Shown: piece by piece, positions 9,470 to 11,414 of the stretch
Layout: every line of letters starts with the position of its first letter
Numbering within the stretch: position 1 is the first letter of the stretch
From: a virus
Taxonomy: Duplodnaviria > Heunggongvirae > Uroviricota > Caudoviricetes
Reading direction: 5' to 3' (one strand)
Length of the DNA stretch: 22,618 bases
IMG/VR virus record: IMGVR_UViG_2700989162_000004
Location: 1-22,618 of that record
Made by a program: the position numbers and the translations under genes
Notes under the pieces: model-generated
The model's input: the letters and a program-made list of their open reading frames with translations, nothing else
Database searches by the model: none
Told to the model about the DNA's origin: nothing

Positions 9470-9942
9470 ACCTCAATCTCTCTGACCGTTCCGCCTGCCT
9501 CTTTGAATTTTGCAATCAGGCTGTCAGCCTTATGCTCGAACTGACCATAACCAGCGCCAGGCAGTGAAGCCCAGATATTGCTGCAACGGTCGATAGCCTG
9601 ACGAATATCACCGCGATCAATCATCGGTAAAGCGCCACGCTCTTTAATCTGTTGCAGTGCCACAGCGTCCTGGCTTTTCGGAGAGAAGTCTTTCAGGCCA
9701 AGCTGCTTACGGTAGGCATCCCACCAACGGGAAAGAAGCTGGTAGCGTCCGGCGGCTGTTGATTTGAGTTTCGGATTTAGCGTGACAAGTTTGCGAGGGT
9801 GATCAGAGTAATCAGTGAATAGCTCTCCGCCAACAATGACGTCATAACCATGATTTCTGGTTTTTTGACGTCCGTTATCAGTTCCCTCTGACCACGCCAG
9901 CATATCGAGGAACGCCTTACGTTGATTATTGATTTCCACCAT
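9466..9942 (-). CDS. R: Endolysin, lambda R-type lytic transglycosylase
   Basis: 158-aa [27 protein letters not shown]... close to lambda R from memory; start overlaps the holin stop. Confidence 0.9.
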
Positions 9943-10249
9943 CTTCTACTCCGGCTTTTTTAGCAGCGAAGCGTTTGATAAGCGAACCAATCGAGTCAGT
10001 ACCGATGTAGCCGATAAACACGCTCGTTATATAAGCGAGATTGCTACTTAGTCCGGCGAAGTCGAGAAGGTCACGAATGAACCAGGCGATAATGGCGCAC
10101 ATCGTTGCGTCGATTACTGTTTTTGTAAACGCACCGCCATTATATCTGCCGCGAAGGTACGCCATTGCAAACGCAAGGATTGCCCCGATGCCTTGTTCCT
10201 TTGCCGCGAGAATGGCGGCTAACAGGTCATTTTTTTCTGGCATCTTCAT
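9926..10249 (-). CDS. S: Holin, lambda S-type, with dual-start MKM motif
   Basis: 107-aa [42 protein letters not shown]..., nearly identical to lambda S as I recall it. Confidence 0.9.
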
Positions 10250-10374
10250 GTCTTACCCCCAATAAGGGGATTTGCTCTATTTAATTAGGAATATGGTCGG
10301 TTACTGATAGAACAAATCCAGGCTACTGTGTTGAGTAATCAGATTTGTTCGTGACCGATATGCACGGGCAAAAC

Positions 10375-10404
10375 GGCAGGAGGTTGTTAGCGCGACCTCC
10401 TGCC
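10375..10404 (-). terminator. Strong hairpin between the tRNAs and the holin; possible tR'-like element
   Basis: Perfect 10-bp stem GGCAGGAGGT / ACCTCCTGCC with a 10-nt loop; on the minus strand followed by GTTTTGCCC, so the U-tract is short. Confidence 0.35.
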
Positions 10405-10491
10405 ACCCACTTTCACGAAGGTCATGTGTAGAAGGCCGCAGCGTAACTATCACTGATGAATTCAGGATAGCCAGTGGCTACGGCTCAGTTA

Positions 10492-10567
10492 TGGTGCTGG
10501 TTAACGGACTTGAACCGCTACCCATTCGCTTACAAGGCGACTGCTCTACCATTGGAGCTAAACCAGC
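10492..10567 (-). tRNA. tRNA-Thr (anticodon UGU), CCA encoded
   Basis: Minus strand GCTGGTT...GCTC-CAATGGTA-GAGC...loop CTTGTAA...GGTTCAAGTCC...AACCAGC-A-CCA; 7-bp acceptor stem, T-loop signature, anticodon loop CUUGUAA; one A-G mismatch in the anticodon stem. Confidence 0.7.
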
Positions 10568-10572
10568 ATGTT

Positions 10573-10647
10573 TGGCGGGACAGCGTGGACTCGAACCACG
10601 ATAAGAAGGTTAACAGCCTTCCGTAATGACCTTTATACGACTGACCC
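10573..10647 (-). tRNA. tRNA-Asn (anticodon GUU), CCA encoded
   Basis: Minus strand GGGTCAG...anticodon arm GAAGG-CTGTTAA-CCTTC...T-arm CGTGG-TTCGAGT-CCACG...CTGTCCC-G-CCA; one T-T mismatch in the acceptor stem and a weak D-stem. Confidence 0.65.
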
Positions 10648-10710
10648 AAATAAAAAAAGCCACCGTTGCAACTTAAGAGTCACTAACGGCAGCTTACCCT
10701 CTAATTATGG
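10648..10710 (-). promoter_or_regulatory. Probable late promoter / Q-utilisation region (pR'-like)
   Basis: 63-bp gap between the Q stop and the first tRNA; ends in an imperfect stem followed by TTTTTTT; assigned by position only, no clean -35/-10 identified. Confidence 0.3.
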
Positions 10711-11229
10711 CTAAATGGCTAATTGCATGTCAAGGCTTTTAACGGCAACATGCTTAACTTTCTCAACACGTTTACGCATTTTGAAAGCATTTTGCATTGG
10801 TTGGTACAAAACAAATAACGACGCTTTCAGGATGTCGTCAATTTCATTTCTACAGGTTGCCAGTGAAGGTTTTCTCCATCCCTCACCACCACGCCCACAC
10901 ATCTTGCGTGGCTTTGCAGTCGCGTGATAGTAGGATGCAATTGCTCGCTTAGATGAACCATGAGCGTAGTAGCTGAGGAGGATGCCAAAGGCTTTCTTGT
11001 CAATGTACATGACGGAATCGACGACCTGAGAAATCAACATTCCATCATCATCATTACACATTGGCCTTGTCATAACTCTTCCCGGCTCTACGCTCTCCAT
11101 GAACTTCGCTATTACGCTGCTCATGCGCTTTTCCAGGCGACCTGAGTAAACCCATGCACCCCACAGTTCAAGCCAGCCATTCAGCCAATCGTGCTGTTCT
11201 TTGGTGAGGTTTAGTTCTCTTATGCTCAT
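10711..11229 (-). CDS. Q: Late-gene antiterminator Q (not lambda Q-type)
   Basis: 172-aa ORF directly after ninH and before the late region and lysis genes; several Cys/His; assigned mainly by synteny. Confidence 0.65.
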   Translation of the reverse strand: MSIRELNLTKEQHDWLNGWLELWGAWVYSGRLEKRMSSVIAKFMESVEPGRVMTRPMCNDDDGMLISQVVDSVMYIDKKAFGILLSYYAHGSSKRAIASYYHATAKPRKMCGRGGEGWRKPSLATCRNEIDDILKASLFVLYQPMQNAFKMRKRVEKVKHVAVKSLDMQLAI

Positions 11230-11414
11230 CGTCTTCCCCTCTTGCCCTGTTTGACCATCAGGACGCCGTTAACTATTACGTGACGCTCGCCTTTGCTGTC
11301 TCGGTTGTACTTGAGCACTGTTCCTCTTGCGCAGGAAAGCATCCTCGCCACTTCGGTCTGATTTCCTCGTGTCTGGATAAGAAGCTCTGGTATCGTTTGA
11401 ATTGTGGCGTTCAT
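11226..11414 (-). CDS. ninH: NinH-like protein
   Basis: 62-aa ORF with ...TIPELLIQTRGNQTEVARMLSCARGTV..., resembling lambda NinH (GNQTEVARRLKCSRGTV) from memory. Confidence 0.8.
   Translation of the reverse strand: MNATIQTIPELLIQTRGNQTEVARMLSCARGTVLKYNRDSKGERHVIVNGVLMVKQGKRGRR

Follow-up and report, generated by a model that had tools for sequence, protein, structure and literature searches.

The closest described counterparts of the locus analysed here are the late leaders of phage 21 (AJ237660), in whose genome two tRNA genes have been counted (PMC9119081), and of Shigella phage Sf6 (AF547987/NC_005344). The annotated order in Sf6 is gene 59 (Q-like), PR', qut, tR', tRNA-Asn, tRNA-Thr (labelled 'similar to phage 21') and then 60/61, the holin genes. 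Some P22-like phages also have tRNAs at this slot, while P22 itself lacks them; the paper on phage L suggested that late-leader tRNAs may supplement the tRNA pool, and described their excision from the late mRNA as unknown (PMC8022706). The position and the suggested role of such a pair have thus already been treated in the literature.

The window, by which we mean the whole 22,618-nucleotide stretch of viral DNA that was analysed, carries a pair of tRNA genes within 156 nt that is 100% identical to the pairs of phage 21 and Sf6. The gene order is also that of phage 21 and Sf6: Q, PR', qut/tR', tRNA-Asn, a 5-nt spacer, tRNA-Thr and holin. ARAGORN, when run on the phage 21 locus, found the two tRNA genes there too. 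By this identity, the pair is the tRNA-Asn and tRNA-Thr already known from phage 21 and Sf6, base for base. Although the tRNAs lack any difference, the surrounding prophage is another mosaic, with head genes of the HK620/Sf6 kind, and the 3' part of its Q gene differs by 26% from that of phage 21 and by only ~2% from that of Sf6. The closest phage relatives of the window, segment by segment, are HK620, Sf6-like phages and HK022, and the whole of it is a P22-like (Lederbergvirus-type) mosaic prophage of E. coli. A role of the pair in integration, as attP, was set aside, since the tRNAs belong to the late leader and the Sf6 annotation places attP next to int, away from them.

The tRNA pair and its place in the late leader

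The earlier note on this DNA had proposed two minus-strand tRNAs, Asn-GUU and Thr-UGU, at 10492-10647, and ARAGORN returned exactly these coordinates, with a match to Rfam RF00005 for both. The gene for tRNA-Asn (anticodon GUU, gtt in the DNA) occupies 10573-10647 (-) and is 75 nt long; that for tRNA-Thr (UGU, tgt) occupies 10492-10567 (-) and is 76 nt long, the encoded CCA being included in both lengths. ARAGORN called no other tRNA within the 22.6-kb window, and a permissive Rfam scan (E<=1) of 10150-10800 gave the two tRNAs and no further match. Both aligned to RF00005 over its full length (model positions 1-71/71), tRNA-Thr with 61.5 bits (E 2.5e-11) and tRNA-Asn with 55.3 bits (E 1.2e-9), roughly double the gathering score of 29, so that neither match can be due to chance. 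Unconstrained minimum free energy (MFE) folding produced a cloverleaf for each. The check by tRNA predictors that the earlier note had suggested thus ended with both genes called, and the pseudogene outcome was not seen.

The details of structure that had been read from the DNA were also found in both tRNAs: a 7-bp acceptor stem, the T-arm motif (GGTTCGAGTCC in tRNA-Asn and GGTTCAAGTCC in tRNA-Thr), a 7-nt anticodon loop with U33 and A37 (CUGUUAA in tRNA-Asn, CUUGUAA in tRNA-Thr) and an encoded CCA end, preceded by discriminator base G73 in tRNA-Asn and A73 in tRNA-Thr. The single stem mismatch that had been ascribed to each, however, was seen in one of them only. In the RF00005 alignment tRNA-Thr has a single non-standard pair, G27-A43 (plus a G50-U64 wobble), whereas tRNA-Asn has two: its acceptor stem contains U4-U69 and its D stem U13-U22. 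This tRNA also carries C9 and a 4-nt variable loop. Apart from these three non-standard pairs, both molecules show the features expected of a cloverleaf, including the D arm, the 5-bp anticodon stem, the GTTCRA T arm and CCA.

Evidence from compensatory change came from the Thr family, the close copies of tRNA-Asn being all identical. When tRNA-Thr of the window was aligned with the tRNA-Thr genes of P1, N4 and Cyrano and with K-12 thrU and thrT, 98.4% of the cells of the cloverleaf were paired, and 13 of the 21 pairs were altered on both sides; 0 of 500 shuffles gave as good a result. Sliding the alignment as a control made the pairing fall to 24-50%. Both elements are real tRNA genes with the anticodons given above.

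The pair lies, as had been stated, between Q and the holin gene. The Q-family late antiterminator (172 aa; 10711-11229, minus strand) matched PF06530 Phage_antitermQ with E 1.3e-25, and its homologues are labelled antitermination protein Q in Sf6, in other phages and in E. coli genomes. With NinH and RusA upstream of it, the Q gene closes the early-right operon. A predicted late promoter, PR', overlaps the 3' end of Q at 10704-10733 (-); in a consensus scan it showed TTGACA, an 18-nt spacer and CATAAT, with 11/12 hexamer matches. The Sf6 record describes the homologous promoter as 'nearly identical to phage 21 late promoter; PR'', and by this homology the site probably functions as a promoter in the window as well.

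Between the promoter and the tRNAs, the late leader (10648-10700, minus strand) contains the qut region and the intrinsic terminator tR', as judged from RNA folding and from the Sf6 annotation, in which qut and tR' are found at the corresponding place. The tR' hairpin spans approximately 10657-10695 and the U7 run 10652-10658; UUUUUUUAUUU comes directly after the hairpin and stops one base short of tRNA-Asn. The 53-nt leader folded with -20.4 kcal/mol (z -4.24), and 0 of 200 shuffles were as stable. A consensus terminator scan of 10100-11300 had returned no terminator, a result that we set aside, because direct folding shows the tR' hairpin clearly and the scan, limited to loops of 3-8 nt, may miss a compound hairpin of this kind. 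The phage 21 record contains a 50-nt 'aRNA' from the late promoter, the last base of which adjoins tRNA-Asn. The late-leader position claimed for the pair is thus borne out: it follows the TTGACA-18-CATAAT promoter and the U7 terminator hairpin and precedes the holin gene, in the same layout as in Sf6.

The two tRNA genes are separated by 5 nt, AACAU (10568-10572, minus strand; read from the sequence), which may serve as a processing spacer; position -1 is U in both tRNA-Asn and tRNA-Thr. A conserved non-coding stretch of 242 nt (10250-10491, minus strand) leads from tRNA-Thr to the holin gene. It includes a GC-rich hairpin at 10375-10404 followed by UUUU at 10370-10373 and, immediately ahead of the holin start, the CCCCUUAUUGGGG hairpin at 10256-10269, and its part 10350-10430 folded with -32.5 kcal/mol (z -3.2). 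Mean column identity of the stretch was 96% across seven E. coli and Salmonella phages, including phages with a different holin, and it matched no Rfam family, even at E<=1. The protein-coding part of the late operon begins with the lambda-S-type holin gene (9926-10249, minus strand; PF05106 Phage_holin_3_1, E 2.4e-30). Its Sf6 counterparts are genes 60/61, labelled holin inhibitor and holin, whose starts lie 6 nt from each other. After the holin gene comes a 158-aa ORF at the place of the endolysin, without a Pfam match and with a Sf6 counterpart annotated as endolysin, and then by Rz.

Distribution and conservation of the pair

The pair is also annotated in BTP1, SPN9CC, vB_SosS_Oslo, S107, Bas106 and 720R6, and RefSeq E. 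coli chromosomes carry the annotated order antiterminator Q, tRNA-Thr, tRNA-Asn, holin. Among 5426 complete E. coli genomes, the Asn allele was present in 368 and the Thr allele in 346 (~6-7%). Most of the E. coli records among the matches listed label the alleles as tRNA; a RefSeq tRNA-Asn label is missing from some of the listed genomes in which the allele is <=98.7% identical (a change of about one base or more) or the region slightly different. As the pair is annotated in Sf6, in many other phages and in hundreds of E. coli genomes in RefSeq, it counts for little as a discovery. A pair so widespread and invariant is, however, a convenient test case for the role of tRNAs in temperate lambdoid phages.

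We summed the differences from the window over 10 phages. For tRNA-Asn they amounted to 2/750 (0.27%), compared with 291/2895 (10%) for the 3' part of Q, 35/630 (5.6%) for PR'-qut-tR' and 70/1538 (4.6%) for the spacer from tRNA-Thr to holin. Indeed, tRNA-Asn is identical in phage 21, Sf6, ST64T and JLK-2012. The Q genes of phage 21, JLK-2012 and phi458 are ~26% off that of the window, and despite this divergence tRNA-Asn is identical in the first two and has one difference in phi458. The tRNA-Thr gene was identical in 7 of the 10 phages and one base off in an eighth; in ST64T its slot is filled by a degenerate copy, in JLK-2012 by a chimeric one. It is a mild puzzle that, of all elements in the region from Q to holin, conservation is highest for tRNA-Asn, with its odd structure.

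The phage tRNAs resemble their host counterparts in the decoding parts. K-12 asnT and thrU have the same anticodons, 7-nt anticodon loops, discriminator bases and synthetase identity elements, while overall identity is ~58% between asnT and the phage tRNA-Asn and ~70% between thrU and the phage tRNA-Thr. These values are too low for genes that the phage had taken from its host recently, and such an origin was rejected. The identity elements of AsnRS and ThrRS are established in the literature. The AsnRS set (G34, U35, U36 and G73) is present in the phage tRNA-Asn, and the ThrRS set (G1-C72, C2-G71, G35 and U36) is complete in the phage tRNA-Thr; with these known elements in place, charging by the host AsnRS and ThrRS is plausible.

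Codon demand and the role of the tRNAs

The earlier note had suggested that the tRNAs adjust translation to the codon usage of the phage and that the frequencies of AAC/AAU and ACA in the late genes be compared with those of the host. As the host reference we used 39 annotated K-12 genes (14,370 codons). For Thr the comparison agreed with the suggestion: ACA accounted for 14.7 per 1000 codons in the late genes of the window, 14.0 in its early genes and 16.7 in the late genes of Sf6, versus 5.8 in the K-12 sample (odds ratio for the window late genes 2.5, p 2e-6). Among the codons enriched in the late genes, ACA ranked after AGA and AGG. For Asn the suggested codon bias was not found. AAC stood at 21.3 per 1000 in the late genes of the window (0.96x relative to the 39 K-12 genes, i.e. 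no enrichment), 23.2 in the early genes, 24.9 in Sf6 late genes and 22.3 in K-12. Total Asn was 40.5 per 1000 in the window late genes, 46.5 in its early genes, 48.0 in Sf6 late genes and 35.4 in K-12; the 1.15x excess in the window late genes was not significant, and that of the Sf6 late genes was (p 4e-5).

The demand argument is strongest at the level of the coat protein. In the coat gene of the window, Asn (1.87x) and Thr (1.75x) were the top two enriched amino acids, ACA was the most enriched codon (4.6x) and ACU the third (3.4x). When the Sf6 codons were weighted by virion copy number, using approximate, P22-type values, ACA was the top codon (3.8x), and without the scaffold protein Asn and Thr were again the top two amino acids. 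A UGU anticodon with cmo5U reads ACA, ACU and ACG. The single tRNA-Asn isoacceptor of E. coli is encoded four times, which leaves no rare-codon gap for Asn. The idea of codon supply is thus supported for Thr, where it fits ACA/ACU well; for Asn the data support it only as bulk amino-acid demand, and not as rescue of a rare codon.

Taken together, we favour, with moderate confidence, the reading in which the two are functional phage tRNAs, the first genes of a Q-dependent late operon, that supply Asn and ACA/ACU decoding. RNA polymerase would start constitutively at PR', near 10697, and without Q would halt at the tR' hairpin and its U-run, one base ahead of tRNA-Asn. Polymerase modified by Q would pass tR' and transcribe tRNA-Asn, the 5-nt spacer, tRNA-Thr, the 242-nt spacer and, beyond it, the genes for lysis and head. 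Host RNase P would be expected to cut the 5' ends of the tRNAs, at the U that both carry at -1, and exonucleases to shorten the 3' ends as far as the encoded CCA. After charging by the host AsnRS and ThrRS, the extra tRNAs would raise the capacity for Asn and ACA/ACU decoding exactly during coat protein synthesis, from which a benefit to the fitness of the phage might arise. Some support for expression of the tRNAs comes from the transcriptome of a lysogen of BTP1, whose tRNAs are identical to those of the window: the two tRNA genes are set apart in the list of highly expressed prophage loci, and the lytic operon is described as starting right after them (PMC7067206).

The benefit would, however, be quantitative at most, because P22 and, as far as scanned, HK620 are without the tRNAs. 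The coat protein of HK620 is 99% identical to that of the window, its Q/PR'/qut module is lambda-type, and we found no tRNA genes in the scanned stretch of HK620 (14500-38297), which includes the late leader. The comparison with HK620 thus comes out against a need of the tRNAs for expression of the genes that use these codons. The tRNAs thus travel with the phage-21-type Q module and not with the head genes that they would serve. The pair is accessory cargo of the phage-21-type Q/PR' module, and a phage with such a coat is viable without it. A further point against supply in the late phase is that ACA is equally enriched in the early genes, whose translation precedes the appearance of late tRNAs. 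Also, tRNA-Asn, the one less well explained by codon bias, is more strongly conserved than tRNA-Thr.

The near-invariance of tRNA-Asn could be explained if the phage tRNAs were spares against defence, replacing host tRNA-Asn and tRNA-Thr that have been destroyed or inactivated by toxins of the host or of competitors (for instance anticodon nucleases, enzymes of the colicin E5 type or nucleases acting on the acceptor stem), and escaping destruction themselves by their differing stems. T5 tRNA-Lys neutralises PARIS (PMC11464382) and a tRNA-Tyr neutralises retron-Eco7 (PMC11555353), and a general hypothesis of anti-defence tRNAs, colicin E5 included, has been put forward (PMC10264068). The retention of a tRNA-Asn so far from asnT (~58% identity), with an odd acceptor stem, D arm and variable loop, is consistent with such a function, as is the recurrence of Asn(GUU) with Thr(UGU) in the unrelated coliphages P1, N4 and Cyrano. 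However, both anticodon loops equal those of the host, so the loop-mutation signature of escape described in PMC10264068 is absent. The literature searched contained no system that targets tRNA-Asn(GUU) or tRNA-Thr(UGU) during infection; papers on Schlafen and retrons gave no link to Asn or Thr tRNAs, and PARIS was dropped as a candidate attacker, tRNA-Lys alone being reported for it (PMC11464382). Moreover, the tRNAs would be made only after Q acts, which is late for the rescue of early translation. We consider an anti-defence role unlikely.

It is similarly improbable that the tRNAs act as processing punctuation, providing entry for RNase P or RNase E and thereby setting the 5' end and the stability of the late mRNA, or that they ride along, nearly neutral, with the Q21-PR'-qut module. 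The arrangement is suggestive, since the tRNAs begin one base past tR' and are followed by the 96%-conserved 242-nt spacer, and the start of the BTP1 lytic operon transcript right after the tRNAs (PMC7067206) agrees with punctuation. The absence of the tRNAs from the scanned stretch of HK620, which combines the same coat with a lambda-type Q module, and the degenerate and chimeric occupants of the Thr slot in ST64T and JLK-2012 point in the same direction. On the other hand, a pure passenger would not remain unchanged beside a Q gene that diverges by 26%, and a mere processing signal needs no intact anticodon loops, identity elements or encoded CCA.

More doubtful is the proposal that the pair is cargo for lysogenic conversion, with a constitutive PR' and a leaky tR' letting very stable tRNA build up in small amounts in lysogens, where it would aid translation of ACA-rich, horizontally acquired genes and make the pair a moron of benefit to the lysogen. 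The BTP1 data hint at expression in the lysogen (PMC7067206), ACA is enriched in all phage genes, early as well as late, and the alleles are common, occurring in 6-7% of E. coli genomes. But BTP1 is induced spontaneously in a small part of the cells, from which the signal may stem (PMC7067206), the tR' hairpin is strong, and there is no promoter-like site between tR' and the tRNAs, tRNA-Asn starting one base past the terminator. What keeps the odd tRNA-Asn in place might, instead of codon supply, be resistance to an enterobacterial defence nuclease or toxin, still to be identified, by which host tRNA-Asn and perhaps tRNA-Thr are inactivated; otherwise it might act in the lysogen through a leaky tR'. 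We regard this as a long shot; if true, the pairing of Asn(GUU) with Thr(UGU) in phage 21/Sf6, P1, N4 and Cyrano would mark a common set of targets.

Finally, that the two are pseudogenes, relics neither charged nor used, appears very unlikely, for although two stem pairs of tRNA-Asn are non-standard and it carries C9 and a short variable loop, and although the RefSeq tRNA-Asn labels missing at slightly differing alleles may mean that its detection is marginal, both tRNAs score at about twice the Rfam gathering score, tRNA-Asn hardly varies between phages that have diverged, no universal position or identity element is missing, and most of the listed records label the genes as tRNA.

Comparison with other phage tRNA clusters

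The reading of the pair as functional tRNAs leading the late operon can be set beside the tRNA clusters of other phages. Phage L/ST64T has a tRNA-Asn identical to that of the window and likewise placed after a Q-like gene, gene 23 (PMC8022706). Its second gene, which has been called Leu-UAA, differs from tRNA-Thr of the window at 17/76 positions, with 4 nt deleted from its anticodon arm; in ST64T this second gene was not called by ARAGORN. The window, unlike phage L/ST64T, keeps an intact Thr(UGU) gene.

In P1, N4 and Cyrano, genes for Asn(GUU) and Thr(UGU) are adjacent or nearly so, with the same anticodons as in the window. Their Thr genes are 77-85% identical to that of the window, whereas their tRNA-Asn belongs to a separate lineage (GATGGTG...) that is nearer to the canonical bacterial tRNA-Asn. 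The genomic context of these clusters also differs, not being a Q-dependent late leader.

Such a context, with which the earlier note had rightly compared the pair, is found in the Stx phage 933W, which has the tRNA genes ileZ-argN-argO downstream of PR'. The tRNAs of 933W are for Ile and Arg and those of the window for Asn and Thr, and the window has no toxin genes behind them. The two nevertheless share the slot, which follows Q/PR'/tR' and precedes the late genes, and the role that has been proposed, namely to provide tRNAs for codons that the phage uses more than its host.

Possible recombination at the second tRNA slot

A chimeric gene in phage JLK-2012 suggests that phage and host tRNA genes have recombined at the second tRNA slot, occupied in the window by tRNA-Thr. 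In this gene, annotated as 'tRNA-Thr' (positions 881-956 of that locus), nucleotides 1-25 match the phage 21-type Thr gene exactly, and the remainder (approximately 50 nt) is similar to host thrU, from which it departs at 4 positions. The chimera carries 2 mismatches in the anticodon stem, was not called by ARAGORN, and is followed by tRNA-Gly(UCC). In phage ST64T the slot (about 881-952 of the locus) is taken by a Thr-derived sequence in which 4 nt of the anticodon arm are deleted and for which ARAGORN likewise made no call; the phage L paper names the equivalent gene tRNA-Leu(UAA). The adjoining tRNA-Asn of ST64T is identical to that of the window.

RefSeq annotation of tRNA-Asn is absent from the listed E. 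coli genomes where the allele is at most 98.7% identical (about 1 base different or more), and likewise where the region differs slightly. The matches without an annotated tRNA-Asn are the E. coli genomes H134, H135, H32 and H34, of which the last two retain the tRNA-Thr annotation despite the missing tRNA-Asn. The odd tRNA-Asn may be near the detection limit of the annotation pipeline.

The spacer and the holin start

The 242-nt non-coding spacer between tRNA-Thr and the holin gene (10250-10491, minus strand) is 96% conserved among 7 phages of E. coli and Salmonella, including phages whose holin differs (class II). It contains a GC-rich hairpin (10375-10404, minus strand) followed by UUUU at 10370-10373; the middle position of the stem is G, U or A among the phages, without compensation. 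A search of Rfam gave no match for the spacer. The spacer could be a second terminator that is overridden by Q, or a 5′ stabilizer of the processed late mRNA.

The holin gene starts at 10249 and is immediately preceded by another hairpin, CCCCUUAUUGGGG (10256-10269, minus strand), which resembles the 'sdi' structure of lambda S. The latter sets the ratio of holin to antiholin. In the Sf6 homologues, the start sites of the holin inhibitor and holin genes are 6 nt apart.

Mosaicism and tRNA pairs in other phages

A 161-amino-acid ORF with T5orf172/MUG113 domains (PF10544, PF13455; 8202-8687, minus strand) is flanked on one side by the Rz lysis gene and on the other by the terminase region. It may have entered the late operon as a moron or as a nuclease-like insertion.

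The coat protein of phage HK620 is 99% identical to that of the window (gene at 772-2043), but its Q/PR′/qut module is lambda-type, with no tRNA genes within the stretch scanned, which shows that a mosaic boundary separates the Q-tRNA module from the head genes.

Genes for tRNA-Asn(GUU) and tRNA-Thr(UGU) are also adjacent or near-adjacent in the unrelated coliphages P1 (725-878 of the locus), N4 (637-886) and Cyrano (773-925). Since the Asn genes of these three phages belong to a sequence lineage other than that of the phage 21 allele, the recurring combination looks convergent or separately acquired.
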